Source: Centroscyllium fabricii (Eukaryota). From it: a DNA stretch of 64,000 bases. The position numbers were made by a program, and so were the translations under genes. The notes under the pieces were generated by a model, which saw only the letters and a list, made by a program, of their open reading frames with translations, did no database searches and was not told where the DNA came from. The stretch spans positions 52,452,001 through 52,516,000 of the forward strand of contig JBNRSN020000020.1 of assembly GCA_051313645.2 (NCBI GenBank), read 5' to 3'. Below, one piece after another: positions 21,496 through 64,000 of this stretch (its first letter is position 1; each line of letters starts with the position of its first letter).

Positions 21496-24400
21496 TATTG
21501 TATTTAAGTCTTTCTACTTAATGAGATGCCTCAAATCAAAGACGGCAGCGAGTTCTTAAATAAGTGGCTTTTATCAACAAGGAACAGAACCGAGTCCCCG
21601 ATGAGCCTGCCTGGAATGAGAGATAAGTGGGTGGAGCATTCTCCTTTATCCTAGTACCCAGAGGCAGGGTCAGCCGGTACAGGTCCTTACAGAAAGGTAC
21701 AGATATTAACAGATATATAACAAACACATTAAACAAAACTATATACAATAACCATACAGTGTGAACACACCAAAAGGTTCATCACACTTAAACACGAAGA
21801 TAATTCAAACTACAGAGCTGTAAAAAGCTGTCTAGTTTAATCAACTGTTAAAAGAGAAAGTGAAAGTAAAACGTAAAAGAACCTCATGGCTGTGCAGTGC
21901 TGTAGCAGCGCCACCACAGGTGGGAGGATAACACATACATACACATCATACATAACATATTCCTCCCCCCTTAAATAAAATGTCCCCATTATTCCTTAAC
22001 AAGTAAATTTCATCCAATGCACTCAATTAACTAAGGGTAGAGGTAGACTGCCTCAAACCCTGACTTTATCCTGGGGTTTATTCTGCCCCATTCTTGTGGA
22101 TAAGTCACTAAGCATACATATCCAAGCATCTTTGAGGCCGCCGCTCTCTGATAGGATACCAGCGGGCATCGCTGGCGTCAACAGCAGTAGACATTGACAC
22201 AGGACTGGATGGAGAAGGTGCCTGTGTTAGTCAAATGTCAGGAGTTTGTACAGGTGGAACAGTCTCTTTGACTTCCTGTGTTGGAGAAGAGTACTGTGCA
22301 GAAGGATGCTGGTTTGTGGTGTCATCCGGAAAACGTTCAGGCCGATCAGCCTTTTTAGCCTCGGTGGCTGTCTCTGCTCCTAGCAACAGTTGATCAGTGT
22401 GGCTTCTCCAGATGACGTCCTCAGCAGTCTCAATCGTGTACGACACAGGGCTTGTCTGCGTGATCACCGTAGCAGGAACCCATTTCTGTCCAGTGTTGTA
22501 GTTTCGAGCTAAGACTTGCCCTTCAGGGTGAAACCGTCACTCCTTGGCTCTTATCTCCCTTCTTTCAACTTGAGCTTGTTGTTGACGTTGGACAACCTGC
22601 ACTATCCTTGGAGGTTTGAGTAAGTCAAAACTTGTCCGCAACTGCCTCTTCATCATGAGCGAAGCGGGGGAAGTTTTGGTTGTGGCATGCGGCTCGTTCC
22701 TGTAGGACAACAGGAATCTGTTGAGACGTTGGTGGATTGAACCCTGACCTTGCGAGCCTTCAAGTTGTGCTTCAAGTTTTGCATGAACCTTTCTGCCAGG
22801 CCATTAGTAGAGGGATGATAGGGCGCAGACCAAATGTGTTGGACACCATTCACTTGCAGGAAAGTTGCAAACTCCTGTGACACAAATTGTGGACTGTTGT
22901 CACTTATGAGTTGCTCTGCTGAGCAATAAAGGCTGAACATCTCACCGAGTTTCTCAATTGTTTTCTCTGCCGTGGTAGACCTCATCACAGCGACCTTCGG
23001 CCACTTGCTGCGAGCATCCACAACCACTATAAACATCTTCTCTTCGAAAGGACCGGCGAAGTCCACATGTACGCGCTGCCACACTTTTTCAGGCCAATCC
23101 CAGGGGTGTAAGGGTGCCAGCTGTGAAACATTCCTGACCCTTTGACAAGGGGAACATGCTTTGGCCTTCTCCTCAATGTTTCCATCGAGACCTGGCCAAC
23201 AGAAATAGCTTTTGGCCATATCCTTCATCCGAACCATTCCACTGTGGCCTGCATGAAATTGTTGCAGTACAGGTTTCCTCAGAGGTGGCGGAATGATGAC
23301 ACGGTGTCCCAAGAGAAGACAATCTGCCTGGACGGAGAGCACATTTCGTTTTGAAATGTAAGGTTTCAACTGAGGAGAATCTCCTATAGCTCTCCCTCGA
23401 ATGCCATTGTCCATTACCTCAGACAGAACTGGATCGTTGCGGGTGTACCTTCGCACCTGAACTGCAGTGACAGGTGCTCCCTCAACTTGTCTGAAGTAGA
23501 AGGTGTCTATCTGATGAGGCTCTGGGTGAGTAACAGGCAAGGGCAGCCTTGAGAGACCGTCTGTGTTGCCATGCAATTCTGATTTACGATATTTGATGTT
23601 GTATGTGTGTCCTGACAACATCAAAGCCCATCTTGCCACCCTGCTTGCAGCGAGAGATGGAAATCCGGTGTGGGGCCCAAAGATTGATGTCAAGGAATGA
23701 TGGTCCATCAGGAGTGTGAACCTTCTCCCAAACAAGTACTGGTGAAATTTTCAAATTCCAAAAACGATTCCCAATGCCTCACGCTCAATCTGTGCATAGT
23801 TACTCTCAGCCTTGTTCAAGGTGCGTGATGCGAAGGCGATAGGTTGCTCTTCACCAGAAGGCATGATGTGAGATATGACTGCTCCCACCCCATATGGTGA
23901 TGCATCACATGCTAGCTGCAAGGATAGCTTTGGGACGAAGTGTGTCAGGACCTCCGACTTCAGCAATGTATATTTGCTTGGGCGAAAGTTTCATTGCACA
24001 GCGCAGTCCATTTCCATGTTTTGCCTTGACATAGCAACTGGTGTAACAGCTTCAGCAATGTTGCTAAGTTTGGAATAAACTTTCCATAATAGTTAAGTAG
24101 CCCCAGGAATGAACGTAACTGGCTCACATTCTGGAGTGTTGGGGCCTCCACGATCTCCTTGACCTTTGATGACACCTTGTGCAGGCCAGTAGCGTCAATC
24201 ACATGCCCCAGGTACTCAACAGAAGACTGAAAGAATTCACATTTGTCCTACGAACTCTGAGTCCGTACTCTTTCAGTCGCTGTAGTGTCGCATTCAAATT
24301 CAGAAGATGATCCTCCTCATTTGCTCCAGTGACAAGGATGTCATCCATGTAGCACTGGATTCCTGGCAATCCACTCAAAATTTGCTCCATTGCCCTTTGG

Positions 24401-25620
24401 AATAGAGCAGGGGCCGACGTAATTCCAAATGGAAGGCGGTAGTACCTGTATAGCCCCTTGTGTGTCACAATTATCAGCAGCTCCTTTGATTTGTCATCTA
24501 CATGCATTTGTAGATAAGCCTGGCATAAGTCGATTTTGCTGAACATTTGCCCTCCAGCCAGGCCCGTAAAGAGATCACCAATGACGGGAAACATAGAAAC
24601 ATAGAAACATAGAAGATAGGAGCAGGAGTAGGCCATTCGGCCCTTCGAGCCTGCTCCGCCATGCAATGAGATCATGGCTGATCATCCAAACCCAGGAAGA
24701 GGGTAGTGTTCCACCAACAGCACCGGGTTAATAGTCACTTTAAAATCCCTGCAGATTCGAATAGATCCCTCCTTTTTTTAGGACAGGAACAATGGGTGTA
24801 GCCCATTTGATCACGCTCACAGGCTCCAGGACTCCCTTCTTGACTAAAGCCTCCACATTAGCCTCAACCTTTGGCCTAATTGCATAGGGTACAGTTCGGG
24901 CTTTGTGAAACTGCGGCTTGCTGTCAGGTTTAATGTTCAGTCTCACATTGATCTTTTTCATGCTTCCAAGTTCCCCATTGAAGAGTTCTGCATGTTTGTT
25001 TAAAACTGCAGTCAGACCTGACTCCCCTTTTGACATCATGCGGACTGCAGGCCAGTCCAGCGTGATTTTCTCTAGCCCCGTACGTCCCAGTAGAGATGCG
25101 TAATTTCCCTTAACCACATATAGTGTCAGTTTCGCAGTCTGTCCATTCAATTTAACTGTCACCTCCATGATGCCTCTCATGGCCACCGGTTCGCCGGTAT
25201 ACGTCTTTAGCACAATGTTTGTTGGCTGAAGGGTAATATGCTTTAACATTTTGTTGTAGACAGTGTCTGAAACAAGGGACACAGCCAGGCCTGTGTCCAT
25301 CTCCATCTGCACTGATTGTCCCTCCACCAGCGATGACATCCAGGAATCATTTGGGCCACCTGCAACCATCAATATGTGCACCTGCTCATCCTCAGAGGTG
25401 TCGCTCCCCTCTGCTCTGCTTATTCCGTCACGCTGCACTGAATGAACACTCTCTTTCTTCTTTTGTCCAAATGTAGACATTTTGTTTTTGTGCTTCCCAG
25501 CTCTGTCTGTTCCTTTTTTACCTCTACAGACACGTTCGATGTGACCATTTTTGCCACAGTTTCGGCATTCCAGCTCCATACCCCAGCAGTCATTAGCGTA
25601 ATGGCCCGTTTTCCCACAAC
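21496..25620 (-). mobile_element. 5'-truncated decayed Ty3/Gypsy element
   Basis: 3' LTR ~21496-21957 next to PPT (cctcccccc). Integrase 22653-23735 (HAGHSGMVRMK, HVDFAGP, SDN, PSTNGLAERF); RNase H (CDASPYG); RT (YMDDILV); protease (MDTG); Gag knuckle CRNCGKNGHIERVC. Confidence 0.9.
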
Positions 25621-25883
25621 ATTTTTTTTAATTTTTTTTTTATTGCTTTGGTTACTTTTTGTTTTTCATACAGCATGTGCAACATTTGACCTCTTGTGAC
25701 CCCACCTCATTGTTCTTTGATGGAATGTTTTGCTGACTGACCTGTTTGGACACCATTTACACCTTTGATTGCGGTGATTATCTTTCTGCCGAGGTGTGAT
25801 AAAGAGCAGTTGGAAAGATTACCTGTAATCATCTGGCAATGTTCTTTGACTATATATGCTGTGCCTATATGCATTTCTTCACT

Positions 25884-43262: not shown

Positions 43263-43369
43263 AAAATGTTTCCACTTGTGGGGGAATCCAACACGAGAGG
43301 TCATTAATATAATATGGTCACTAATAAATCTAATAGGGATTTCAGGATCAACTTCTTTACCTAAGAGCG

Positions 43370-44787
43370 TGTAAGGGGTTTGGCAGCCGGCCTTCTCCAG
43401 GCTCGACCTAGAGTCCCTGCGCCTTGCCTTGGTCCCGCGACCAGGCCTCGCACACCGGGTCCCTGTGAGCGGTTCGAAACGCTCCCCCCTACGGTTCTCG
43501 ACACTGGGCTTATGTACAGGAGTTGTGATAGTGTAGGTAATTCCTGCCAGAACAGAGTTCCAAGAGACCAGAGATGTGATGTTTAAAACACAGTTCTTTA
43601 TTACACATTCAATAGTTTACAAAAGTAGAACCAAACGTTAATCATTGTTAAAACAGGATGGAGAGGGTACGACACAACGTAACATTGGGCAAACATTAAA
43701 CAGCTACACCCCAATATGCTTCCACGACACCCACCCTCCACTTCCTACACTATCCTATGTCCAGACGTGCAGAAGCGGAACACCATACTCACCATGGGCT
43801 ATGTTTACTGGGGGTTCGGGGTTCGTTGGTTGCACCTCCTTCGTCCTTCGATTAGGTAGCTGTGGAAGGGGCTCTCTCTCTCTCTCGCTCTTCCGCCTTC
43901 CTGGCTTCCTGGCACCGACTTCTGATGCAGGCAAGCACTTTTCTAGCTGATCTCTAACCGAGTGCACCTTTCTTTCTGGTTCAGACCTCCACTGCTTCTC
44001 TCCAGCTCTTACTTTTAAATCGATACAGTTACTGTTTCTGGCTATTAACTGCCATCAGCTCTTTGCTTGAGCTCTCGTTCTTCAGTTCGTCAGTCTGTTA
44101 GCTTCCTAGCTCATCAGTTCCCCTCTGTCCGACTCCCTCTGTCCGTTGTTTTTCTTAGTTCAAAACCCTGGGCCGTTATACCCCCGCACCTCGCGCTTAT
44201 CTGCGCGCCAGATCTAGAGTGCCCTTTTGTCTTTAAGTGAGGTTAGATCTGTTCTTTTCTGTTCTGATCGTCGCCTAACAGCCCGGTAATCTCCTGACCA
44301 CCTGTAAACGTCTTTCTCGTTAAGCGATCTCTGTGCAAAGCTTTTTCCCATCACCGGCCCTCGGGTTTCTATGGGCCTTTTGTTTTAGTTGACGAGGTTA
44401 CCTCGGTGCCCCTTGTCCAAATGCTGGACACCGGCGCCTCCCAGTCTGGGGACTCGATCTCGTTATGTGGGCTATTCATGACCAATATCCCAAGTCTGTC
44501 TGGTCATGATTTTGCAGAAAAATGTGTGTGTGGGGCTGTTTTAGCTTCACTCTGCCAGGCTGATCACGTGGTCAGCGAAGCCATTTTGTGGCCCCTGCTT
44601 GTGTCTGGGGTTTTCTTTTAAAATGTCTCTGGCTATGGTCCTTTTCCCCTGGTACAGAGCCACATCTCCGTACCTAGGGTGCCCCCCACATTATCGGTTT
44701 TAGCAAAAGCATGTTGCTTGCATTTCTGTGTTATGAAAAGTGTTGATAGTAGTTCTGGATCCGGGAAACATCAGCTCAAATCTTACA
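43370..44787 (-). repeat. 3' LTR
   Basis: TGTAAG...CTTACA inverted termini; minus-strand TATAA at 44176-80 and AATAAA at 43597-602. Confidence 0.95.
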
Positions 44788-44800
44788 GTCCCTCCTGTTT
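44788..44800 (-). other. Polypurine tract
   Basis: Minus strand AAACAGGAGGGAC immediately precedes TGTAAG of the 3' LTR. Confidence 0.7.
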
Positions 44801-45209
44801 GATTACACACACCCCAATATGTCGTAATCAAATTAAATTACGGTTGAGCTATGTTTTCCCGGTTGTCCACGTCCAGACCCCCACTATTTTACCTAAACTA
44901 GTGCCCAAGTACTTAACGTACAGTCCCCATCTTTCAGGCCGACCTATACATTACTGCCTTCCCGGGTCACTATATACACATAAACATTCCCCAGATTTGT
45001 GCCCGTCTTTCAAAACTTACACCCTTTTCCTCGGCTGATGCCGTCCGCCAACCGTCCTCCTGTCGGTGATCGTTTTATTGGGGCACAAAGATCAATACAT
45101 ACACCACAAAAAGAAAATACCTTCAAAACTTAAACTTAAATATATATACAGTGTTTTCAATGAGACTCTCTCACAGAGAGGTAAAATTGGAGGTGACTTC
45201 TTCCCCATG

Positions 45210-47456
45210 TCAGCAGCTTGTCTCTGCCTCCGGTTCGTCCGCCCTGACGTACCGGTCCCTCCATTCCCCTCTGCCTATCCGGCTGCGAAGCCGCTGTCTC
45301 CCTCTGCACTGTCCACATATTAAATAGAACACTATAAAAGCTTGCACCACCACTAACACGTGTGATGCAATTCTAACCCAAGATGGGACTTCTATATTAT
45401 TGAACAGGTCCCACCACGGGGGAACCACTATCTCCAATATGTCTGCCCCAATCTTATCTGTCTTCTGTTCCAGGGTGTAAAAATGCTTTTGCGATACGGC
45501 AACTGCTTTTAAAAGTGTTGTGAGGTGTTCGGGGAGAGGGGGTATGGCATACCCAAAATGCGCCACAAAGTGCTGCAGGTTGGTGAAATTCTCCCTTACA
45601 GTGATGTGAACCGTGGAGGGTTCAGGTATGGGGACGATTCGCAGCTGTGCCACTTGAACCTCTGCCTGTGGTTTAAAACAGAAGCTGCTGTCACTCACCG
45701 GACATAGGCCATGCTGCCCGTGTCGGTAGTGTTGCGCTGCAGTGGTAATACAGTAAGTACCACCCCCTATGTATGCCACCTGTGGAGGGACATGGTCCTG
45801 TGCCATCGCCTCCATAGTGCAATTCATAGGCTTCGCGCCAACAGCCCTGAACCCACACTGCTGTACCCGCAAGACATTCAAGTGCTGGGGACACAATATT
45901 ATATGTGCTCCCCTGCTCCGGCACCCCGAGAGGTCTGTACCTGTCATCGACTGCTCCCAGCGGACAACATACGGTGGGACCTCTGCGTAGCGAACGTGTA
46001 CTCCCCCCTGAATTACTCCGATGTTCTCCACCCTGTATACCGGTGCGGGCCTTGCCGTCTTGCCCAACACCGGCATCCGTACCACCACTCCCATGACCGT
46101 GTAATTAGAACGCCCACAGTCAATGGGAACAGGGTACGCCTCTGACGCCAACCTGAGCTGACACGGTGTAAGCGCGTTCTGAAAAGGCTGCAGTGCTTGG
46201 AGGTGTTTGTTACTGATCCAGGACGGGACCAACCCTTGCTTCAGGTCCTCAAGGTTGCTGCGGCCCTCGCCCAGCAACCACGCCCCGTACAGAACGCACA
46301 CCTCGTTCTGCGCAGCCTGGTCAGAAGCGTTCCGATCTTCCTTGATCAGAGCGTTCACCGTGCTCGCGTGTCTTTCTAATTCCGCGATTATCTCGCGCAG
46401 GTGCAGTGTCATCGCCTGGTCCTCATGGAGCTCCGACCCGACGACCTTGTTCTCCTCCGTGAGGATGTCCTTCAACTGCGACTTTAAACCGTTTATCTGG
46501 GTCTGCAGCTCCATGGTGTCGAGAGCGTTGACCACAGAGGCTCCGGTGTTAAAGCCCGTGAACGCATCATTCACTACACCCCTCTTTTGTCTCCCCGTTT
46601 GGCCCCATGTCTCTGGCCCTTGGCGGTACAGGCTTGCCTTGTCTACACTGGCCAGGTCAAATTCGTAAAACTGCCTGTACATATTTGCCAGCAGCACCTG
46701 ATATAACCTTTCGGTCTCCTTGGGGCACCACTCCGGCAACCTTACCTCGGTGAGGTTTAAAATCACCGAGGCCACCGTGTAGTGCACCCCCTGGTATAAT
46801 ACCTGATCTGTTGGTATCAATACCAGGCCATTCTCGGGCCCCCGTGTAGTCTTGGGGCACCCACCCTCCTGTGCTGCTGCCCGCCTCGGTGTGGGAGGTG
46901 TTGTGCGTGGTCGGGTGACGAGTTCAGTGGCGTTAACTGGGCTCGGGGAAAATGGGACCCCACAGGCTTGTGAGCTAACATCCCACCTCATCCCCTTACC
47001 ACCATCTTGCCACTGCTGGTGGAAAAATATGCTGTTCCCTGTGGGGCACAAATACCTGGAACCCCACATACACACATAAATTCCCTCATCAGGCTCCCAC
47101 CACTTGTCCCAACAGACACTCAAACTTTCATTAGTCCCAAAGACTGTCCTGTGAGTGTTGTTGTCCAGCTTTTCCCAATTCACGGTTGAGTTGACCATGG
47201 TCCGGCTGGTTTTCCGTAGCCACCACCTCAACCGGGTGTCGACCTTTCCGGTGCACCTCAGGCAAATCCTCTTGCCGGCCGTGACGCTGATCTTCTGGGC
47301 GACGATCTTCACTTTTGGGCACAATAACTCAGTGTCCCTGAAGAAAAAATCCTGGGGTGCCGAGATACTCAGAAGCGTTCGATCCCAGCCACCCTGGCCA
47401 TCGCCCCTGGTGGAAGAAAACGGCAGCTCCTTCGGTTGTCCGTTGTCCCATCCCAT
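45210..47456 (-). CDS. env: Env: Ig V-like domain + Pro/Thr linker + class I F-type fusion glycoprotein
   Basis: C68-W78-DEGIYVC129 Ig pattern; furin RQKR (46581-92) then GVVNDAFTGFNTGASVVNAL; heptad helix; Cys cluster DLSGC..ILCP..QC..NCT; second heptad; TM IASHVLVVVQAFIVFYLICG; basic tail; several NxS/T sites. Confidence 0.85.
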   Translation of the reverse strand: MGWDNGQPKELPFSSTRGDGQGGWDRTLLSISAPQDFFFRDTELLCPKVKIVAQKISVTAGKRICLRCTGKVDTRLRWWLRKTSRTMVNSTVNWEKLDNNTHRTVFGTNESLSVCWDKWWEPDEGIYVCMWGSRYLCPTGNSIFFHQQWQDGGKGMRWDVSSQACGVPFSPSPVNATELVTRPRTTPPTPRRAAAQEGGCPKTTRGPENGLVLIPTDQVLYQGVHYTVASVILNLTEVRLPEWCPKETERLYQVLLANMYRQFYEFDLASVDKASLYRQGPETWGQTGRQKRGVVNDAFTGFNTGASVVNALDTMELQTQINGLKSQLKDILTEENKVVGSELHEDQAMTLHLREIIAELERHASTVNALIKEDRNASDQAAQNEVCVLYGAWLLGEGRSNLEDLKQGLVPSWISNKHLQALQPFQNALTPCQLRLASEAYPVPIDCGRSNYTVMGVVVRMPVLGKTARPAPVYRVENIGVIQGGVHVRYAEVPPYVVRWEQSMTGTDLSGCRSRGAHIILCPQHLNVLRVQQCGFRAVGAKPMNCTMEAMAQDHVPPQVAYIGGGTYCITTAAQHYRHGQHGLCPVSDSSFCFKPQAEVQVAQLRIVPIPEPSTVHITVRENFTNLQHFVAHFGYAIPPLPEHLTTLLKAVAVSQKHFYTLEQKTDKIGADILEIVVPPWWDLFNNIEVPSWVRIASHVLVVVQAFIVFYLICGQCRGRQRLRSRIGRGEWRDRYVRADEPEAETSC

Positions 47457-47801
47457 CGGTCGCGGTAGGCGCGGTGCTTCCCGAACATCCGTATACCACG
47501 ATGTCCTGGGTGCGGCCCCGATAGGCCCACCCGCATCCGATCGGCAGGAAGATGATTCCCCATCTTAGTGCCTCGTTCGGTTCCTGAAACAGATAACGTT
47601 GGTATAGCCAGCCTCTCCAAGAGCGCTTGGCTGTGTTAAAGACCCATGCTTGGGTCTGATGACCCCAGCCAGTACCCCGCATCTGCACCCTGGACACATT
47701 GCCCCTTTTACCTAACCCAGTAAAATATAACTTAACTTACCACTAAACTTCTTAAAACTACCTCGCCTATAATACAGCGCCGCCCTTCCAAGGCGGCCAG
47801 G

Positions 47802-48755
47802 CTAATCCTGATCCAGGCTGCAGCGCGCCGCTGTCTGTGGCTTGGCCGTGCTGCCTGCATCCTTTGAAGTGCCGCAGCCTGTGGCTGCCTGCCAGTGACC
47901 ATCTTCCTTTCTCCAACCCGACAAACTGCCTGTCGCTGGGGCCCCGTACCATTCCGGCCAAAGCTTCCTCAGTTGAGGTATCCTGCTGGACCTACGGAGA
48001 GTCACCTCAGGCACGGCCCCCTGGGCAGCCCGGTTGAGGACAGGTTCCCGCCGTGCCGCAGCTCGGGTGACCCCCGCAGCTGCCGACCCCGGCCTTTCCT
48101 CATCCAGCACTACCCCCTTGGGGCTGGGTATATCCGCGGCTTCCGACCTCACCCTGTCTGTGACAGGTGGTGAGTCTCCGCCCGCTACCCCCGCCTCCCT
48201 GGTGCTTGAGTCGAGGATGCTCTCGTCATCCCCCTCCGACTCCCACTCCTCCGTCATGAGATTCAGCCCCAGACCGAGCTGATCAGGCTCGTCTTCGTCT
48301 GAGTCCCATCCAAACCGGGACGCCCTCCATTGCTGGGAAACGTCTTCCTCCTTTCCCCTCACGCAGGCAGCTTTACCCACCTGCGTGACCTTCCTCATTT
48401 TTGGCTGTGATTCTCTATCCACAGGGCTTGCCCCTGTGACTGACCCCTGTTTTACCTGCTGCAGCTGACCTGTTGCAGCCTTTGAGGTTTTAAACTCCCT
48501 TTTCACTTCAGCTGCCTGGGTTTTTGCCTCCAGGCTAAACAGCTTGCACCTGCTGTGAAGCATTTTAAAAACCTTGAGTTCTTCCTCTAAACTGCTAGCT
48601 TTTGCCGCTAGCCTGTCATTCTCTTTCCTTAAAGCCCGTTCCACGACCTGAGCTCCTGCAACCTGGCACCCCAGGAAGTCCTCCAAATTACCGGAGGTCT
48701 CTTCCTCTGCATGTCTTTCCGAGGGAACCGGGTTGACAGGCTGCGCGGGCTCCAG
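47802..48755 (-). CDS. ORF2: 317-codon open frame, in frame behind the gag stop (coiled coil + acidic/low-complexity; function unknown)
   Basis: No stop between gag TGA (48756-58) and the annotated 47802-48686 ORF, which starts at TTG rather than ATG. Confidence 0.6.
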   Translation of the reverse strand: MEPAQPVNPVPSERHAEEETSGNLEDFLGCQVAGAQVVERALRKENDRLAAKASSLEEELKVFKMLHSRCKLFSLEAKTQAAEVKREFKTSKAATGQLQQVKQGSVTGASPVDRESQPKMRKVTQVGKAACVRGKEEDVSQQWRASRFGWDSDEDEPDQLGLGLNLMTEEWESEGDDESILDSSTREAGVAGGDSPPVTDRVRSEAADIPSPKGVVLDEERPGSAAAGVTRAAARREPVLNRAAQGAVPEVTLRRSSRIPQLRKLWPEWYGAPATGSLSGWRKEDGHWQAATGCGTSKDAGSTAKPQTAARCSLDQD

Positions 48756-50522
48756 TCACTGGGGAATGTCCGGTGTCCCCCCCGCACCCGGGGAGCCGGT
48801 GGCGACTGCAACCTTCCCTTGTGCTTCCATGAGAGACAGCATCACCTCGATCATTGACTCCAACGTTTCGGGCTTAACGGCTATCTCGGCGCGCGGAGCG
48901 GGGTTGGCCCTAACCTCCTTGGGGAAAGCCCTGCAGTCTTTCCTCCAGTGCCCCACCTTACCGCACCTAAAACACTTGGACTGTGCGGCAGGGTTGCCCT
49001 CCTGACGCCATTCCTTCAGGGCCGATGTAACGGCCTCCGCTACGTGCACCTTCCCCTTGACCGACTTGGTGGCGGTGCTCCGGGTGTTCCGATACCCCAC
49101 GGTGAGGCAGTCCAAAACCGCGTCCTCCGTGGTGTTCGTTGGGTCGAACCAGGCTTTCGCCTGCTCCCGGACAGCTGCTAGGCTGTTCGTTACCAAGCAC
49201 CGAAGCCACTGCGCCCTAACATTTCCGACCAGGGCATCCCGGTTCAGGACCTGCGGGCAGCTACGTTGGTAGACCGGCCACAGTCTCGCCGCAAAAACCC
49301 TCGGAGGTTCTCCCTCCATCTGGAGAGTTTTCCCCAAGCGGGCAAATGGACCCTCATCGTCCGTGCCTAAAACCTCCAGAACCTCTTCCCTTAACTGTTC
49401 GTAGGTTCTGGTACCCCGTTTGCTCTCATCACTGAGGCACTGAAGGAATGAGTAGTCCAGGGAGAACAATAGCATCCTCGCCTGCTCCCCCTCGTCGCAA
49501 CCATTGATTGCGGCGGTCTGCTCAACCTCCTGAAAATGCAGTGAAGGGTCCCCCGATTCGGACAGCTTCCTGACTTGCCCGACCATGGACCTCAACTGCT
49601 GGGCGCTGTGGGGCACTATAATCTGACTTTGGACAGGCCCGGGATCCCCGTTCGCTGCGTCGGGTCCCCGCCTGGTCTCCAGCAATGGACACATCGGTGC
49701 CTGCGCCGGTTCCCTGGCCGGTCCCCCCCCCTGCTCACTCTCCCCAGCGCCCCCCTTCTCCCAGGAAGCCTCATAGCTGGGGGGATCGTGATACGTGGGG
49801 GCCGAAGCCACCACGGGCATGCACGGACCCCTTGCTGGAACCCTTGCCGCTGCCAGTGATGATCCCACTGCGGGGTTCATAAGGCAGACCAACCCACTAG
49901 CCCTATCTAAGGCGCTGCGCAGGCTTTCGATCTCCTCCCTACAAGCCCCGTGATCAGCCCCTTCGGACCGATCCTCCAAAGCCATTTTATAGGCTGCTTT
50001 AACCCCCCGGAGAGTCTCCCCTGTGGCCCCCAACTGTTGGTCTAGGCCGGCACACCGCTGCCTAATTGCGCCCTCACTGAGCTTAGCGTCAGTGATCTGG
50101 CACTCCAACAGTTCAACCTTGGCCTCATAGCGGTTGACCAAAACCCGGCGCTCCTTGTTCAAGGAGTCCAGGGCCTCGATCAACTGGAGCCCTCCCTCAG
50201 CCTTTTCACTCACCTCCTCACGGAGGTTCCCTATCTGGGCTGCCTGCGCTGCCACTACACGGTCCAGGAGCTGGACCTGCTTCTTGTAGCACGACAGCCA
50301 GACGGCCTTTTCTACCAATTTCTTGTGTGCCTTGCTGGACGTCCACCGGATCGCTGCATCCAGTGGGCGCTTGTCTTCCAGCAACTCACACATCCATGAC
50401 TTGGTCAGATTGACCTTGCTGAACACATAGTCGGCCATGCGTTCATCCATCATATCCTTAGTTCTTACAACCGTTTCTGGCACACTATCATCCTGTTGCC
50501 AGTGTCCCTTCGTGATCGCCAT
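48756..50522 (-). CDS. gag: Gag polyprotein
   Basis: N-terminal coiled coil, PPSY late motif, capsid-like region with MHR-like LQMEGEPPRVFAARL, knuckle CFRCGKVGHWRKDC. The first ATG overlaps the PBS, so the true start may be MMDERM near 50453. Confidence 0.88.
   Translation of the reverse strand: MAITKGHWQQDDSVPETVVRTKDMMDERMADYVFSKVNLTKSWMCELLEDKRPLDAAIRWTSSKAHKKLVEKAVWLSCYKKQVQLLDRVVAAQAAQIGNLREEVSEKAEGGLQLIEALDSLNKERRVLVNRYEAKVELLECQITDAKLSEGAIRQRCAGLDQQLGATGETLRGVKAAYKMALEDRSEGADHGACREEIESLRSALDRASGLVCLMNPAVGSSLAAARVPARGPCMPVVASAPTYHDPPSYEASWEKGGAGESEQGGGPAREPAQAPMCPLLETRRGPDAANGDPGPVQSQIIVPHSAQQLRSMVGQVRKLSESGDPSLHFQEVEQTAAINGCDEGEQARMLLFSLDYSFLQCLSDESKRGTRTYEQLREEVLEVLGTDDEGPFARLGKTLQMEGEPPRVFAARLWPVYQRSCPQVLNRDALVGNVRAQWLRCLVTNSLAAVREQAKAWFDPTNTTEDAVLDCLTVGYRNTRSTATKSVKGKVHVAEAVTSALKEWRQEGNPAAQSKCFRCGKVGHWRKDCRAFPKEVRANPAPRAEIAVKPETLESMIEVMLSLMEAQGKVAVATGSPGAGGTPDIPQ
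50504..50521 (-). other. Primer binding site, tRNA-Arg(UCG)
   Basis: TGGCGATCACGAAGGGAC lies 5 nt after the LTR; 17/18 complementary to the vertebrate tRNA-Arg-TCG 3' end GTCCCTTCGTGGTCG-CCA (tRNA sequence recalled, not looked up). Confidence 0.8.
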
Positions 50523-50526
50523 AATC

Positions 50527-51944
50527 TGTAAGGGGTTTGGCAGCCGGCCTTCTCCAGGCTCGACCTAGAGTCCCTGCGCCTTGCCTTGGTCCCGCGACCA
50601 GGCCTCGCACACCGGGTCCCTGTGAGCGGTTCGAAACGCTCCCCCCTACGGTTCTCGACACTGGGCTTATGTACAGGAGTTGTGATAGTGTAGGTAATTC
50701 CTGCCAGAACAGAGTTCCAAGAGACCAGAGATGTGATGTTTAAAACACAGTTCTTTATTACACATTCAATAGTTTACAAAAGTAGAACCAAACGTTAATC
50801 ATTGTTAAAACAGGATGGAGAGGGTACGACACAACGTAACATTGGGCAAACATTAAACAGCTACACCCCAATATGCTTCCACGACACCCACCCTCCACTT
50901 CCTACACTATCCTATGTCCAGACGTGCAGAAGCGGAACACCATACTCACCATGGGCTATGTTTACTGGGGGTTCGGGGTTCGTTGGTTGCACCTCCTTCG
51001 TCCTTCGATTAGGTAGCTGTGGAAGGGGCTCTCTCTCTCTCTCGCTCTTCCGCCTTCCTGGCTTCCTGGCACCGACTTCTGATGCAGGCAAGCACTTTTC
51101 TAGCTGATCTCTAACCGAGTGCACCTTTCTTTCTGGTTCAGACCTCCACTGCTTCTCTCCAGCTCTTACTTTTAAATCGATACTGTTACTGTTTCTGGCT
51201 ATTAACTGCCATCAGCTCTTTGCTTGAGCTCTCGTTCTTCAGTTCGTCAGTCTGTTAGCTTCCTAGCTCATCAGTTCCCCTCTGTCCGACTCCCTCTGTC
51301 CGTTGTTTTTCTTAGTTCAAAACCCTGGGCCGTTATACCCCCGCACCTCGTGCTTATCTGCGCGCCAGATCTAGAGTGCCCTTTTGTCTTTAAGTGAGGT
51401 TAGATCTGTTCTTTTCTGTTCTGATCGTCGCCTAACAGCCCGGTAATCTCCTGACCACCTGTAAACGTCTTTCTCGTTAAGCGATCTCTGTGCAAAGCTT
51501 TTTCCCATCACCGGCCCTCGGGTTTCTATGGGCCTTTTGTTTTAGTTGACGAGGTTACCTCGGTGCCCCTTGTCCAAATGCTGGACACCGGCGCCTCCCA
51601 GTCTGGGGACTCGATCTCGTTATGTGGGCTATTCATGACCAATATCCCAAGTCTGTCTGGTCATGATTTTGCAGAAAAATGTGTGTGTGGGGCTGTTTTA
51701 GCTTCACTCTGCCAGGCTGATCACGTGGTCGGCGAAGCCATTTTGTGGCCCCTGCTTGTGTCTGGGGTTTTCTTTTAAAATGTCTCTGGCTATGGTCCTT
51801 TTCCCCTGGTACAGAGCCACATCTCCGTACCCAGGGTGCCCCCCACATTATCGGTTTTAGCAAAAGCATGTTGCTTGCAGTTCTGTGTTATGAAAAGTGT
51901 TGATAGTAGTTCTGGATCCGGGAAACATCAGCTCAAATCTTAAA
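50527..51944 (-). repeat. 5' LTR
   Basis: Copy of 43370-44787; outer terminal C>A change at 51943. Confidence 0.95.
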
Positions 51945-53112
51945 AGCGGTAAGAATGTGGAACGTGCTACCACAATGAGTAGTTGAGGCAAATAGCATCG
52001 AGGCACATAAGGGAAAGCTAGATAAGCACATGTGGGAGAAAGGTATAGAAGGATATCCAGACAGGGTTAAATGAAGTGGGGTGGAAGGAGGCTCGTGTGG
52101 AGCACAAACGGCGGCATAGACAAGTTGGGCCGAATGGCCTGTTTCTGTGCTGTACACTCAATGTTACGCGATGTAGATCCTGTCAAACACCACACTTTTG
52201 CCACCGATGGAATGGGCAGCTCAGTGGCCTCTTCCATATCTCTTTGGCTGTTCCATGATGTTCAGCCATTTTCCACCATTATTCTCTACTGGAACAGCTA
52301 GATTTTCATCCTTCTAAAATTCATATGGGGAAGTGGTTTATTTGCTGGCTCAGACATGTGTAAAATTCATAAATTCAGGTGCATCATGATTGACGGCCAC
52401 TTTTGTGTTGCTGTTTAGGAATTAACACTTTTCATAGTTAGTGATCCACTAAATATTCAAGAAACAAACTTTATGGCAGTTTTTGCAAACTGATTAAGGT
52501 TAGGCCCCTTATTTTTTAGTTTGTGATCTGATATTTGAACTTTGTCATAGTGAATAATTAATCTGTAGAGATCTTTAAAATCATTTCTTTTGTTATTAAT
52601 TTCCAGTAAAAAATAAATCGCAGATTGGTGGATCAGTAAAATACTGATGTCTGTCTGATTATGGCATGCAATGAGACAAATTCTCCCTGAATTTAGTCGA
52701 TTCCAAGATAATGTCACTATCGCAATGCGCATCCTTCTCAAGTACTGGCTTTCCACCCCAATTCTGGAAGGTAGGTAACTTGAGGTACATTTTTATGCAT
52801 TAAAAAGTGTTTGAAGTGTTTGAAAAGGAATTTAACTCTTATCTCATGACTACCATACCTGATCTGTCATGACAAAAGGAGAATGAAAGTTGTATTTAAC
52901 GAGGCATTGTTACAAAGTTCTGATCGCTGGCCATTGAGGCACCTGACTGAAAGACACCACTAATCCACATCCAAGATACTCAGTTAAGCAAAGGAACAGC
53001 ATTCATACAAAAGCAAAATACTGTGGATGCTGGAAATCTGAAATAAAAACAGAAAACGCTAGAAATACTCAGCAGGTCAGGCAGCATCTGTGGCGAGAGA
53101 AACACAATTAAC

Positions 53113-56034: not shown

Positions 56035-56405
56035 AACACAGAAACACACAGAAACACAGAAGATATGAGCAGGAGTAGGCCATTCAGCCCTTCGAGCCTG
56101 CTCTGCCATTTTGATAAGATCATGGCTGATCATCCCCTCTCCCCATATCCCCTGACACCCCCAACTACAAGAACTATATCTCACGCACACATACTCATGG
56201 GCAATTTTTTTTTAGTATCTCCAATTCACCTAACCTGCATGCCTTTGGGTGGTGGGAGGAAACCGGAGTACCCGGAGGAAACCCACCCGAACACGGGGAA
56301 AACATGCAAACTCCATGCAGAGAGGTCCCAGGCCCAGCAGGATTCGAACCCAGGAGCTCCTTGTTGCGAGGCAGCAGTGCTAACCACTGCGCCACTGTGT
56401 CGTCC
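56035..56405 (-). mobile_element. V-SINE
   Basis: Minus-strand A box TGGCGCAGTGG, B box GGTTCGAATCC, V-domain, CR1-like tail. Confidence 0.85.
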
Positions 56406-57984
56406 TGAACAACCTGAATGAAACCATCCCGCAACCCCTAAGCCGGCCAAGGCAGAAATAATTGCAAAGACCAAACATGTACATTTTGAATACAAAATCA
56501 TATTTATTTTACAAACTGTGTGTGTGTCATTTCCTCATGAGAAACTAATAGAAAGAAACACAAAAAAAGTCATGGTCATAATTGATACTCACAACCTGGA
56601 GATAATGTCCAAACCACTAAACAAAAGGCTGACCACGTACCTCGGCGTTTAATAAAAAATGAACAACATTTTGTCACACCTCCTACTTTTTGCTCTTCGA
56701 GGGTGATCTCCTTCTCTTGCGCACTTCCCCCCTTCCCACCCTACTGCTCCTCCGTAATGGGATCCCAGTGGCTGCAGCAAGGCTGCTGGAAGGCTGCTGA
56801 TTGTCAGAACCTGAGACTGCAGATGTCCTTGAAGGATGACTTTGACCAGCTCTGGGCCTGGAAGGCCTGGCTGCAGACTGCATCAACTCTGCATGGGCAG
56901 CAGCAGTCTGTCCCACATGCGGTGGCAAGTGCAGTGGAGAAGTGACAGTGGTGGCAGCAGGAATGCTGTCATCTTGCGAGAGGACAGCAACTCTCTGCTC
57001 AACCAACACACTGGCACACCCAAGGGGCAGCACTTCAGCATCTGGAGCAATCTGCTGGAGCACAGATTTCTGGCCTGCTGCGGCGCGGTGAGAGCCCCGG
57101 GGAAATGTGTCCGAACCAGCGAGGATGGCAGCAGTCAGTTTGCGTGGCCTCAATCTGAGTCTGCATGAGAGCAGTCAGAGATAGGGTCATGGCAGCCAGT
57201 AACTGAATTGCAGCACCATACATTTGTGTGGCATACGCCTGTGCTACAGCGAAGAGCTCCACACTCCTTGCCAGTGATTCAATGCAGTCGGGCACCCTTC
57301 CCACTGCACCCATGAGCTCAGTGTGCATGTCCACCACCTGGGTGTTCATTTCAGTGATCAGCCGCTCCTCCTCTGCGTCCAGTGCAGCAGGACTCACTGG
57401 CACACTCTCCCTCCGGGGAGAAGGCCCCCCGAGCTTCCCTACCCCCATCGCGTTGCTGCAGCCCGCTGGGTCCGGGAACTTCACCCTCATCAGAACTTTC
57501 CCCGCTGCTCCCCTCCCGGGAAGGCGTGTTCCCAGTGTGGGCATGGGCTAACTCGGGAGAGGGTGGCGCTGATGCTACGTCTTCATCTTCCTCGTCGCCT
57601 TCAGCTTCACTCCCACTGGCAGCTTGAGGGCCCGTCTCCTCAGCTGGTGAATCACCATCTGAAAGCAGAGAGGTACAAGAGTGGCTTTAGTGTGAGGACA
57701 GGGTGGCAGTAAGGGAGGAATGAGTACAGCGATTTAGTAAGTTGGATTGAAAGTGTCAAAGGCTGGTATTCTGAGGGACAAGTGGAAAGAGAGAGAAGAA
57801 AAAGCTGATGACCTTGCCATTGCTGTCCAGAACGGGGTCGGTCTCTCCATTGGTGACGGAATGATCACCCGGCTTGCCACGATCCTGTGGATGCGCACCT
57901 CAAGATCGCTGAGGGGTTGCAGCTGAGGCTGCCCTCCACCCGTCCGTTGCTGCTGTCTCCTATTATCAGATAGCTTGGCCTGCA

Positions 57985-58357
57985 AGAAACACAGAAACAC
58001 AGAAGTTAGGAGCAGGCCATTCGGCCCTTCAAGCCTGCTCCGCCATTTTGATGAGATCATGGCTGATCATCCAAACCCAGCACCCCCCTCCTACCCTCTC
58101 CCCATATCCCCTGACACCCCCAACTCTAAGAACTATATCTCACACACATACTCATGGGCAATTTTTAGTATCTCCAATTCACCTAACCTGCATGTCTTTG
58201 GGTGGTGGGAGGAAACCGGAGTACCCGGAGGAAACCCACACGAACACGGGGAGAACATGCAAACTCCATTCAGAGAGGTCCCGGGACAAGCAGGATTCGA
58301 ACCCAGGAGCTCCTTATTGCGAGGCAGCAGTGCTAACCACTACGCCACCATGTCGTC
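57985..58357 (-). mobile_element. V-SINE, same subfamily as 56035-56405
   Basis: Highly similar to 56035-56405. Confidence 0.85.
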
Positions 58358-59764
58358 CTTAAAAGGATGACGTCTGAGTAAATATACAGCTATGGTCTTG
58401 CCTGATATGGCTCTCATAGGCGAATAGCCCTTATTGTATGCAAAGTGTGGAATGTGCATGTATGTTTCATGAGAGGGCCATAGGTCTTGGATGAGTGTTG
58501 GGCATTGGGGTTTTAAGACCCTCTGGCCATAGAGTGAGGTTGGGATGGAGGGATGGAGAGGAGATGGAGAGATGCCCTTGAAGGACGGCCTCGACCAGCT
58601 CTGGGCCTGGAGGGCCCGGCTGCAGACTGCACCAACACTGTATGGGCGGCAGCAGTCTGTGCTACAGGCAGTGGCAAGTGCAGTGAAGAAGTGACAGTGG
58701 AAGCAGCAGGAATGCTGTCATCTTGAGACAGAATAGCAACTCCCGGCTTGACTGACACACTGGCACTCCCAAAGGGCAGCACTTCAGCATTCGGAGCAAT
58801 CTGCTGGAGCACAGATTGCTGGTCTGCTGCAACACGGTGAGAAACCCGGGGAAACGTGTCCGAACCAGCGAGAATAGCAGCAGTCAGTGCTCGTGTGGCC
58901 TCAATCTGAGTCTGCATGAGAACAGTCAGAGATGCGGTCAGAGCAGCCAATGACTAAATTGCAGCACTAAGCATTTGCGTGGCATCCGCCTGTGCTACAG
59001 TGAAGTGCTCCACACACTTTGTCAGTGATTCAATGCATTCGGGTACCCTTCCCACTGCACCCATGAGCTCAGTGTGCATGTCCACCGCCTGGGTGTTTAT
59101 TTCAGCGATGAGCCGCTCCTCCTCTGCGTTCAGTGCAGTAGGACTCGCTGGCATACTCTCCCTCCGGGGCGTAGGCTCCCGAACTTTCCTACGCCCATCG
59201 CATTGCTGCAGCCCGCTGGGTCCTGGAGCTTCACCCTCATCAGACCATTCCCCCCTGCTCCCCTCCAGGGAAGGTGTTGTCCCAGTGTGAGCAAGGGCTT
59301 CCTCAGGAGAGGCTGGTGCTGATGCTCCAGCTTCCTCTTCCTCCGCACCTGCAGCTTCACTTCCACTGGCAGCTTGAGGGCCCGGCTCCTCAGCTGGTGA
59401 ATCTCCATCTGAAAGCAGGGAGTTACAAAAGTGGCTTTAGCATGAGGGCAGGGTGGCAGCAAGGGAGGAATGAGTGCAGCGATTTAGTAAGTTAGATTGA
59501 AAGTGTCAAAGGCTGGTGTTGTGAGGAACAAGTGGAAGGAGACAGGATAAAAAGGTGATGACCTTACCATTGCTGTCCAGAACGGGGTCGGCGTCTCCAG
59601 TGGCGATGGGACCAATCACCCGGCTTGCCACAATCCTGTGGGTGCGCGCCTCAAGATTGCTGAGAGGTTGCAGCTGAGGCCGCCCTCCACCTGTCCATTA
59701 CTGCTGTCTCCTATTATGAGATAGCTTGGCCTGCAAGAAAAAGGACGGCTTCTGAGTAAATTTA

Positions 59765-59918
59765 CAGCCATGGTCTTGCCTGATGTGCCTCCCATAGTTG
59801 AATAGCCCTTACTGTATGCAGCCATGGTCATGCCTATTGTGCTTCCCATAGTTGAATAGCCCTTACTGTATGCAGCCATGGTTTTCCCTGATGTGCACTC
59901 ATAGTTGAATAGCCCTTA
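59765..59918. repeat. Tandem repeat, ~54 bp x ~3
   Basis: cagccatggtc..atagttgaatagcccttactgtatg; third copy is cut after TTA. Confidence 0.85.
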
Positions 59919-60217: not shown

Positions 60218-61711
60218 ATGAACAGGAGGAGAGCAGGACAATCTGGCAAGGCCAAGGGACGCGGCAAAGCCACCAAGCTCGCCCCAGAGCTGATTGAGGA
60301 CAGCCCGAGGGAAGCAGCTGTACCTCCACACATCACTCCACCACATGTGGCCGAACCAGATCTCCCCTCGACAGAGGAGGAGCGCCCGCTGGAGTTTGAA
60401 GACCAGCCGGGCGTGGTCGAGAACGAGGCCGACCATGCTGCCGAGGTGGAAGCTCCTCCATCCCCTGTGTCCCTGGGGTCAAAGCCAAAGAAGGCGAGGC
60501 TCCAGTCTAACCTGAGTCCAGAAGAACAGGAGGAGGTAACTGATATATTTATAACTGATAATCCTTTTTTAATAATCACTATCGTCAATTTGATTTTGTT
60601 TACAACTATATTAATTTTATTCTAGGTGGCCCTCTTTCTGGAAGCCCATGACTTCATTTTTAACAAGAGGCGTGAGGACCACTGCTTCGCTGGCCGTAAA
60701 AACAAGGCGTGGGAGGACCTGGCCAACAGGATGGGCAAGCAGGTCAAGGCACTGACCACTTTCTTTGAGAGCATGCGGACGCAGGTGGGGAAGATGAGGA
60801 TTACAAAGAGTGGCCAGGGAACGATGGAGCTGACAGAAAGGCAGGAGTGGATCTGGAAACGCTTCCAGTTCCTGGTACCACACATCAGCAAGGTCATCAG
60901 GCGGAATGTGCAGGGCCTCAAGCCTCCTACCACACAGCCGGCTCGTGGAGATCCAGAGAACAGGGATCATGAGGTGGACCTGCAGGAGGCTAATGTCACC
61001 ACGCCACCGTTCCCCATCACCCCAACCTCCTGCATCACCACCGCCAGCTGCTGCAGCTGCAGAGGAGGAAAGGGGAGAGTGGCAGCAATGGAGGAAGAGG
61101 AGGACATTGCAGGGGATATTCGCAAGTCAAGGGAGAGGCAGATGGAGCTGCTGGATATCCTTAAATCACACCCTCTTCATGCTGTTCCCTTTCCGGAGCG
61201 CCTCAAGTACGCCGAATATATGGGGCATGCCTTTCAGCGATTGTCCACCGCTAGGTACATTGAGGTGAGGGACAAAATTTGGCAGATCATCTCGAGCACA
61301 GATAAGGAGATGGATGAAATGCAGCATTCCCACCAGGCAGCATCGCTAGGAGCACCTGCACCAGAACCAGCTGGCTATCGACAGAGACCATTCAGCTCAT
61401 CCACCCTGCCCATGTATCCTCCTCCTCCTCCTCCTCCTCCTCCATGGAATCAACCCTACCAGCAGCAAGGCCAGTGGCCGTTGCAGCAGTCGCAGTGGCA
61501 GCCAAGGCCTGTGGTTCATTCTGCTTGGCAGCCAGTGGAAACGCCGTGGATGTATCAGCAGCCAGGAACCTCCAGGCACAGTGAAGCCGCCACGGTCAGG
61601 AACGTCAGTCCAGCAGCAGAAAGCCAACAGCCAGACACGGGTGCACTAGTGGAGGATGTAGTTGTCAGCCTCTCTGATTTTAGCAGTGATGTGACCGAGT
61701 TTGAGGTCTGA
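60218..61711 (+). CDS. MADF/Myb-SANT-like DNA-binding protein, 2 exons (60218-60535, 60626-61711), 467 aa
   Basis: GAG|GTAAC donor and TTCTAG|GTG acceptor, 90-bp AT-rich phase-0 intron; joined LSPEEQEEVALFLEAHDFIFNKRREDH..KNKAWEDLANRMG..FESMRTQVGK is MADF-like. Confidence 0.82.
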
Positions 61712-62306: not shown

Positions 62307-63617
62307 TCACACTTGCTTGTTCAGTCCTGCCAACCTCTCCTGCCACGGAACAGATCCTGCAGGACTGTTGAAGTAAGCCGTGAGGTACTCCCTCTGGCTC
62401 TTGGCCACCTGATGGTCTCTGTTGCGTGCATAGGGGTAGGGAACCGCGGGCATCTGCATGCCGTCCCTCCAGGCTCCAGGGATGATGTTGTGGTTGTCAT
62501 CCTCGTGGTCCACCTCAGCGTTTCCAATGGCGGGGAACCTGATCCTCATGAGGTTGTGAAGGAGGACAGCTGTTTCCACCATGGTGCGCACCGTATCTGG
62601 ATGTTGTTCCAGGGTTCCATGGAAACATCTCCATCTGCTGGCCATGATGCCAAAGCCATTCTCCACCACGCGTCTGCCCCTTGAGATTCGGTAGTTGGCC
62701 ACCATCATCTCATCACTGAGACCCCTCCTGGAGTAGGGTTTCATGAGGAAAGTTCTGAGGCCAAAAGCATCGTCTCCCAGGATAAAGTAGGGCGTGTCTC
62801 TGTCATCATTAGGCAGAGGGTCGTCGTCAGGGAAGTGGATGGTGTGGTCATCGATGCATTCCCTCAGTTCTGAGGCCCCAAATATCTGTCCATCAGATTG
62901 ATGACCTTCTCCACCAGTGTCAATCCAGATAAACTTATAATCAGCATCCACCATGGCCAGCAGAACCACGGAGAAGAAGCCCTTGTAATTGTAGTACAGA
63001 CTGCCGGACTTGGGTGGTTTCTTGAGGGCTATGTGTTTGCCATCCAAGGCCCCCAGGGCATGAGGGACATTCCACCGGTCGTGGAACTGCTGGGCAATGG
63101 CTTTCCAGTCCTCCTGGGTCTGGGGCAGTGGCATGACCTCGTCCTTTAGCGTTTGAATGATGGCATGGCATACCTCCTTGACGATCACTCCCACGTTGCT
63201 CCTGCCACATCTGAAGTCGTAGTGGAGGGTCAGGTACCCGTCTCCTGTAGCCAGGTGTCTGAGGGTGAGGGCCAGCTTCAGTCCAGCTTCTAGGGGTGGT
63301 CTCAGGCGGGTGTGCTGCCTCTGGATGACAGGGGTGATCCTTTGGAGGAGCTCATCAAACATCTGGGGTGGCATTCTTACATAGTTGGTGAAGGAGTTCT
63401 CATCCTCCAGCCTCAGCTCCTGCAGCAGTCTGTTGTAGTGCCCATGTTCTAGCCTTCTAGCAGGTGTCATCCATGGTCGAACCCACCAGCGCTTGCATCT
63501 TCTCTGTCTTCCTGTGGGATCCCTTCTTCTGCTGTTCAGAGCTACCAGCAGTTGGTCTAGATGTTGGTACTCTATTTCCATGGCAAGAGCAAGACATCCT
63601 ATCAGTTCAAAATCCAT
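62307..63617 (-). CDS. Intact Harbinger DDE transposase, 436 aa
   Basis: LKLALTLRHLATG, GALDGKH, YNYKGFFSVVLLAMVDADYKF, SDGQIF, LGDDAF, RRVVENGFG, LHN. Confidence 0.93.
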   Translation of the reverse strand: MDFELIGCLALAMEIEYQHLDQLLVALNSRRRDPTGRQRRCKRWWVRPWMTPARRLEHGHYNRLLQELRLEDENSFTNYVRMPPQMFDELLQRITPVIQRQHTRLRPPLEAGLKLALTLRHLATGDGYLTLHYDFRCGRSNVGVIVKEVCHAIIQTLKDEVMPLPQTQEDWKAIAQQFHDRWNVPHALGALDGKHIALKKPPKSGSLYYNYKGFFSVVLLAMVDADYKFIWIDTGGEGHQSDGQIFGASELRECIDDHTIHFPDDDPLPNDDRDTPYFILGDDAFGLRTFLMKPYSRRGLSDEMMVANYRISRGRRVVENGFGIMASRWRCFHGTLEQHPDTVRTMVETAVLLHNLMRIRFPAIGNAEVDHEDDNHNIIPGAWRDGMQMPAVPYPYARNRDHQVAKSQREYLTAYFNSPAGSVPWQERLAGLNKQV

Positions 63618-64000
63618 TGTGCAAATGACCTTCTCAACCTGGGGTCAGGGTTTTTTTATACCTTTCGGCCACCATGAATATGCCCGAATGTCAAGAACGA
63701 TGCCGAATATCGTAAACTATTCGTAGCTAATTCGTAGTAGTCGTAACTTCATCGTCGAGGTCGTAGTGGATTCGAACAATCATTCGGCACATTCGTAAGT
63801 GGGTCACACCTTATTCGTGCACTTCTTACCTGATTCTTTGACTTCGTACTTGTTTCTTAATCCATTCCTGACATTCGGCATATCTTTCAAGCCGAATCTC
63901 CAAGAATCTTTCATTACACCTTCGTACCATCTCCCGAAAAGCCAAGAAATGAACACGAAATTTGACTTTTTTTCCCGAAACGCAAGAAATTTCGATTCGG

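Follow-up and report, generated by a model that had tools for sequence, protein, structure and literature searches.

We found that a retrovirus-like element without enzyme genes in the genome of Centroscyllium fabricii very likely depends on a helper, namely a young and complete endogenous retrovirus (ERV) resembling snakehead retrovirus (SnRV) in the same genome, of which it is a defective form and a parasite. It occupies positions 43370 to 51944, on the minus strand, of a stretch of 64,000 nucleotides, hereafter the window (GenBank assembly GCA_051313645.2, contig JBNRSN020000020.1, positions 52,452,001 to 52,516,000). We refer to this element and its copies as the passenger (family A) and to the complete virus as the helper (family C). 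The passenger is the helper with its protease-reverse transcriptase (RT)-RNase H-integrase part swapped, in frame, for a piece of 288 bp (48738-48451).

The helper was found through a protein (P0008) in which an integrase C-terminal domain precedes a tail like that of the second open reading frame (ORF2) of the passenger; searching the genome with it gave 144 scored matches. Ten helper copies, chosen for an open Pol frame of 1442 aa, were fetched, and all ten run LTR-gag-UGA-pol-env (LTR, long terminal repeat). By Pfam, their Pol comprises RT, tether, RNase H and integrase; gag is open in five of them and env in seven. Compared with the window copy, these ten are 95-96% identical in Gag, 96% in the Pol tail and 98.5-99% in Env. 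The helper LTR is 97-99% identical to the passenger LTR and about 168 bp longer, and the helper junction gives 189 matches in the genome against none for the control. The original prediction had suggested a search for pol-bearing elements that share the LTR or the primer binding site (PBS), and the helper is such an element, having LTR, PBS, gag and env in common with the passenger. It had also pictured the passenger as a partner supplying particles and entry, which did not hold: since the helper has a gag and an env of its own (the latter open in 7/10 copies) and needs no passenger, the passenger is a parasite and not a needed structural partner. No accessory ORFs were seen.

The pol-less layout has been amplified. 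An exact 24-mer over the passenger 3′ junction has 217 matches in the genome (control, 0), so this is not a unique deletion among copies that otherwise carry pol. A DNA search returned 23 full-length interiors at least 99% identical among 27 matches; searching with Gag gave 74 matches at 96-100%. Forty further copies were picked by Gag similarity, these being 40 of the 48 Gag matches outside the first DNA-search list, and every one of them runs from gag into ORF2 without pol. The view that the element is not a simple decayed provirus is thus borne out. Among 30 copies with two full LTRs, the window copy included, 24 have a 4-bp target-site duplication (TSD), all 24 different, and the LTR pairs differ by 0-12 letters. 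In the window copy, whose interior measures 5739 bp, the two LTRs show six ungapped differences, one of them in a terminal dinucleotide (51943). The complete cis elements that had been claimed for this copy, namely the 1418-bp LTRs with six differences, the AGCG duplication, the PBS and the polypurine tract (PPT), were all verified (Table 1).

Other passenger copies have PBS variants that match, at the 3′ end, either tRNA-Arg(TCG) exactly or tRNA-Arg(CCG), as found in genes called by ARAGORN in the same genome. The PBS is recopied from the primer at reverse transcription, so these variants indicate real reverse transcription with two primers. The new TSDs and the PBS variants show that the passenger has spread by reverse transcription and integration. 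SnRV, too, is said to use a tRNA-Arg primer (Hart et al., in 1996, reportedly). Across all copies (50504-50526), the PBS types (Arg-TCG, Arg-CCG and variants) and the spacer of 2-5 letters before the PBS track clades of copies. The CCG-type PBS occurs mostly with an LTR subtype that is ~6% diverged, though the interiors differ by ~1%.

We then investigated what stands in place of the enzymes. ORF2 is a frame of 317 codons that follows the gag UGA directly and in the same frame, and its tail is the C-terminus of Pol; an earlier reading of ORF2 as a separate gene of 253 aa was thereby ruled out. The claim that pol is missing stood only in part. Protease, RT, RNase H and integrase motifs are absent from every long frame of the window-copy interior, where a YGDD on the plus strand and two GPF are chance matches, and the sole Pfam match is the Gag zinc knuckle. 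However, residues 103-317 of ORF2 form a helper-like Pol tail, so a remnant of pol is present. For the 288-bp piece ahead of this tail, no homologue outside the tail was found among 1.84 billion representatives, nor was the piece found in the fetched loci or elsewhere in the window. It has 228 genome matches at no more than two mismatches, compared with 217 for the passenger junction, indicating that it has no close donor family in the genome and is confined to the passenger. A CvfB_WH match to the insert (E 0.005, below the cut-off) was taken as chance. The insert frame is open in 40/41 passenger copies, and UGA-CUG at the end of gag is retained in 61/61.

The two forms appear to exchange sequence. 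Net divergence between passenger and helper is at most 0.7% outside one interval at the gag end, where it reaches 10%, and is about zero in env. Within 48827-48750 lie 31 of the 37 near-fixed differences between the forms; in this boundary block the end of the passenger Gag is closer to a skate Gag than to the helper Gag. In the Pol tail, both forms have two alleles at 14 sites, one of these sites having three (61 passenger and 50 helper copies), and shared alleles occur in all four combinations, which points to recombination between passenger and helper. The junction is also present in a second organism, for which 4 of 19 listed public runs were examined. There, contigs over the 3′ junction differ at 13 of 225 letters and have 3 gaps, while those over the 5′ junction have 9 differences in 187, so that both junctions are ~94-95% identical; a helper-type loose end occurs at the same place in a run from another study of this organism. 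Among the changes listed, the indels and skips in its insert total 3 and 84 letters, both divisible by three, and its tail has two changes that are multiples of three and a one-letter gap near the ORF end. Judged from these sequences, the passenger junction is older than ~5% divergence and its flanks match the local helper. From this we infer co-packaging and template switching.

Passenger RNA would thus be packaged with helper RNA in mosaic particles, with Gag-Pol supplied by the helper, and passenger Gag may help capture passenger RNA in cis. A fusion of Gag, insert and tail would be made by readthrough at the gag UGA and would take the place of Gag-Pol. Template switching would keep the passenger gag body, tail and env nearly identical to those of the helper, and the junction block would predate the present burst. 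The env of the passenger would itself be, at least in part, only carried along and refreshed by recombination with the helper.

Selection on the passenger genes was assessed with omega-like values, for which the mutation spectrum was taken from private changes and CpG changes were treated apart. Private variants are neutral (omega-like ~0.9). Among the 61 passenger copies, none of the 10 changes that disable gag and none of the 4 that disable ORF2 is common to two copies. For contig C1, 25 of its 27 copies were scored: 19 have an open gag, 23 an open ORF2 and 12 an open env, and 10 have all three frames open. Shared non-CpG variants in ORF2 are 28 nonsynonymous to 2 synonymous (p 0.012, post hoc). 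Positive selection specific to the passenger was rejected as the cause, because the helper tail has the same excess (shared non-CpG variants of the Pol tail, 11:0 in the helper versus 21:2 in the passenger; Fisher p 1.0). These variants hit ORF2 codons 120, 140 and 282 repeatedly (tail 47802-48449; helper tail in loci L100-L139). Taken as they stand, the sequences suggest that Gag is probably used in cis by the passenger; use of its Env is uncertain, and a role of the UGA-readthrough product is possible. The kept readthrough frame and the nonsynonymous excess in the tail point to a function for a usually ignored part of Pol.

Several observations weigh against dependence on this helper as we read it. 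Some of the shared-allele sites in the tail are CpG and others are not; those at CpG could be recurrent mutations, and gene conversion between integrated copies could also be a source of shared alleles. Over the whole interior, with 10 helper copies and a stricter rule, only one shared-allele site was found. A second possible source of Pol exists in family B, described below. The signs of selection are slight: shared gag variants have omega-like values of 0.56-0.61 (p 0.08-0.12, weak purifying selection) and shared env variants 0.64-0.96 (not significant). Under a narrower CpG rule the pooled gag and env count is significant (88:64, p 8e-4), but the significance is lost with CpG treated apart, so the signal of purifying selection is fragile and depends on the definition. 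Purifying selection on env, significant only when pooled with gag, was therefore rejected. The original prediction had named neutral evolution of gag and env among pol-less copies as a sign against it, and on this count the outcome is mixed, with purifying selection not clean, being slight in gag and unproven in env. In addition, 3 of the 37 changes that disable env are common to two copies, env is open in only 12/25 contig C1 copies, and the set of 61 passenger copies leans toward intact gag, since similarity in gag was the criterion by which 41 of them were picked.

Alternatively, the passenger might need only its cis signals, its frames being open from youth and from overwriting by the helper, and its proteins having no role. 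This view, which departs from the favoured one only in giving the proteins no role, is conceivable, though we consider it somewhat improbable. Neutral private changes fit it, as do the failure of every stratified test of shared gag or env changes to reach p 0.05, the env broken in 13/25 contig C1 copies and the net env divergence from the helper of about zero. On the other hand, the 288-bp piece cannot be repaired from the helper, yet its frame is open in nearly all copies; the insert indels listed in the second organism keep to multiples of three; and UGA-CUG has been lost from none of the 61 copies.

It is also doubtful, though worth setting out, that the passenger is an old and stable satellite lineage. 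The readthrough product (Gag, the 96-residue insert and the Pol tail) would then be a working stand-in for Gag-Pol that enters mosaic particles and competes with or recruits helper Gag-Pol, and the tail would be under diversifying selection in a conflict with helper or host. If true, this would be a life style not seen before, in which a satellite retrovirus brings along its own capsid and envelope as well as a decoy Pol, midway from defective interfering genomes to true satellite viruses.

Family B is a young relative that lacks env: in 10/10 fetched copies only ~830-880 bp with a decayed env scrap lie behind pol. A Pol of 1546 aa is present in many of its 55 scored matches. It was first considered as the main helper and dropped once the closer family C was found. 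A division of labour, in which the passenger supplies Env (and particles) to family B and receives Pol from it, as the idea of a structural partner would require, is quite unlikely. Family B shares the PPT (nearly identical to that of the window copy), the LTR ends and an Arg-type PBS with the passenger, and it matches the helper at 89% in RT and 92% in integrase. However, its Gag is only 57% identical to the passenger Gag, which counts against this reading since Pol enters particles as Gag-Pol, and the LTRs of the two share only ~120 bp at 72-81%. Family C is a far closer helper that makes its own Env, and all signs of exchange are with it. As further observations on family B (L041 4390-9999, L042-L059), it is very young, has CAA-UGA-CUA at the end of gag and gives at least 55 near-identical Pol matches; an amplified subform of 1235 aa has its integrase core deleted in frame.

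We consider it very unlikely that the passenger is maintained for a benefit of its Gag or Env to the host, such as receptor blocking, a dominant-negative Gag-tail fusion or a developmental role. The gag-only Bik-1/2 elements, with a developmental role of Bik-1 Gag in zebrafish, offer a precedent (bioRxiv 10.1101/2024.03.25.586437), and skate relatives of Gag and Env are annotated as genes; but the passenger copies are new insertions at scattered sites, where they have since decayed neutrally, and env is broken in the window copy. Finally, an assembly error or a segmental duplication of one deleted provirus, to which some tandem copies, the 6/30 copies without a clean TSD and a possible sequencing error at the env frameshift might have pointed, is refuted by the 24 different TSDs and is further at odds with several LTR/PBS subtypes that follow the copy tree and with junction contigs in independent public runs.

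Table 1. Features of the passenger copy, numbered from the first letter of the window
Feature	Position	Strand	Remarks
Target-site duplication AGCG, 4 bp	left 43366-43369, right 51945-51948		
3′ LTR, 1418 bp	43370-44787	minus	
PPT	44788-44805	minus	purine-rich tract adjoining the 3′ LTR
env	45210-47682	minus	family product 823 aa; frameshifted in the window copy at 47344-47349
Transmembrane segment of Env	near 45390-45300	minus	
RQKR cleavage motif	46592-46581	minus	
Possible immunoglobulin-like domain, Env surface part	47022-47324	minus	weak, best E 0.09
Pol C-terminal tail	47802-48449	minus	covers ORF2 residues 103-317 with the stop codon; 96% identity with the helper tail behind integrase
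In-frame piece of 288 bp replacing protease-RT-RNase H-integrase	48451-48738	minus	heptad-like by eye
Boundary block	48750-48827	minus	31/37 near-fixed passenger/helper differences
gag UGA	48756-48758	minus	context CAG-UGA-CUG, in frame with ORF2
gag	48756-50522	minus	likely start Met24 at 50453
Zinc knuckle of Gag	48977-48930	minus	Pfam
PPSY	49784-49773	minus	Gag residue 247
PBS	50504-50521	minus	one letter off the 3′ end of host tRNA-Arg(TCG)
5′ LTR, 1418 bp	50527-51944	minus	

The structural proteins of the window copy have database relatives in a skate Gag (74%), a skate Env (81%) and a sawshark Env (66%), which suggest a cartilaginous fish as host. The N-terminal part of Gag is coiled-coil-like, and the SnRV Gag has a coiled coil as well. 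An intact Gag of 588 aa with a PPSY motif had been described, of which the motif stands, being retained in 58/61 passenger and 10/10 helper copies. The start is less secure: because the first ATG of the 588-aa frame shares letters with the PBS and is missing from 16 of the 22 contig C1 copies in which the PBS was read, Met24 is the likelier start of Gag. The skate Gag has SPSY in place of PPSY, which weakens the reading of this motif as a late domain.

The Env of 748 aa that had been reported for the window copy proved to come from a frameshifted gene and is not the intact protein. The window copy differs at the homopolymer run 47344-47349 from each of the 38 other copies spanning it; the family Env of 823 aa starts at 47682, and the 748-aa ORF opens with ~36 residues read in the wrong frame. 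Besides the cleavage motif and the transmembrane segment, Env has heptads. The immunoglobulin (Ig)-like signature of its surface part is weak (25 of the 28 listed PDB matches belong to the Ig superfamily by name; Pfam Ig_3, E 0.19), and searches of Pfam and the PDB with the whole Env gave no match. In an Atlas search, the Env homologue P0002 scored 0.92 by features to clusters of PF00523 (paramyxovirus F), and through this homologue Env looks probably F-like. AlphaFold models of Env, with a mean predicted local distance difference test score of 34.6 and 29.8, were set aside and not used.

We then considered the class of the helper; the papers cited here and below were available to us in part. 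The helper RT motifs LDISNGFWS and LPQGFHxSP.IFHQ are common to SnRV, as read by eye and without a tree of named references, which suggests a snakehead-retrovirus-like ERV. In the supplement of PMC7947760, LDISNGFWS occurs three times, each in an SnRV row, and at the position of the helper LPQGF, 24/24 lokiretrovirus RT rows read PFG. By this reading of the RT motifs the lokiretrovirus label was rejected. The likeness to lokiretroviruses drawn in the original prediction fails for RT, although Env probably looks F-like. The database Pols nearest to the helper are those of coelacanth and frog, with an RT identity of 51-54%. In a FastTree phylogeny of 59 homologues (weak support, midpoint root), the helper integrase stands apart, at the printed nodes, from three NYNRIN proteins; a grouping with CGIN1/NYNRIN is a lokiretroviral trait of integrase. 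The helper Pol has a tether and a second RNase H, a lokiretroviral trait that is found in all retroviruses and is not diagnostic. In coelacanth, the main class of ERVs is SnRV-like (PMC4977317); such ERVs are also known from the elephant shark as CmiERV lineage I (PMC4422223) and form the clade Huo (PMC6001957).

Other repeats were noted along the way. One passenger copy (L016 4278-9001 / L041) contains a nested family B element and a further 1.4-kb insertion between ORF2 and env, and insertions near the same spot occur in the passenger copies L001 and L034. Elsewhere in the window, 22653-25627 (minus strand) holds decayed gypsy-type gag-pol fragments, fragments of long interspersed elements (LINE) lie at 8625-9461 and 15738-16895, repeats like short interspersed elements (SINE) are scattered across the window, and 56209-59874 is a diverged tandem duplication with a period of ~1750 bp and 87-94% identity. 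The open frames at 62307-63644 (minus), 60626-61711 (plus) and 10414-11304 (plus) resemble Harbinger-type transposases and a partner DNA-binding gene.

The nearest known systems differ from the passenger in what they keep. Our literature search, which covered neither subscription journals nor Repbase/Dfam, gave no account of this family, of an SnRV-like ERV that lacks pol but has gag and env, or of any other non-autonomous SnRV-like ERV. In chicken, the ERV family EAV-HP has lost pol and retains sequence of gag and env; to our knowledge, its gag and env are fused and chicken has no intact helper. With SnRV-like ERVs of the clade Huo, the virus described here shares the RT motifs, the dual RNase H and the cartilaginous-fish host group; here, however, the Env looks F-like with a possible Ig head, and very recent activity of an SnRV-like virus with such an envelope is documented in a cartilaginous fish. 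With lokiretroviruses, in the account of PMC7947760, it shares an Env layout with RXKR, heptads and transmembrane segment (probably F-like), the tether and second RNase H and a coiled-coil Gag N-terminus, but its RT motif differs from all 24 lokiretroviral rows. That account lists no lokiretrovirus in the 3 chondrichthyan genomes screened. Bik-1 and Bik-2, the gag-only derivatives of lokiretroviruses, have no env in the report on them (bioRxiv 10.1101/2024.03.25.586437).

The closest parallel is found in cattle, where ERVK[2-1-LTR] C and D forms show trans-complemented spread, near-fixed variants at the boundary and recombination in the flanks, and where koala KoRV-A/recKoRV and mouse MusD/ETn are cited as parallels (PMC10924933). 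The passenger resembles them in amplification without enzymes, a competent partner with shared LTR, PBS and flanks, recombination, and differences at the boundary, and would likewise spread by trans-complementation. In both cases competent and defective forms coexist and a central segment is replaced by foreign sequence. On the other hand, the swapped-in piece here is 288 bp, the two forms stand at ~1:1 and the virus is SnRV-like and not a betaretrovirus. With ~220 passenger copies, ~190 helper copies and a young env-less cousin in one assembly, the cis-preference of Gag, the need for Env and recombination between the forms could be measured from natural copies. The cattle D-type elements lack any intact ORF, with gag and env kept only in portions, and the helper-dependent ERV forms in the accounts that we consulted keep no intact genes or only gag. 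The passenger keeps a full gag, an env and an in-frame readthrough ORF, and their retention across species is its unusual trait.

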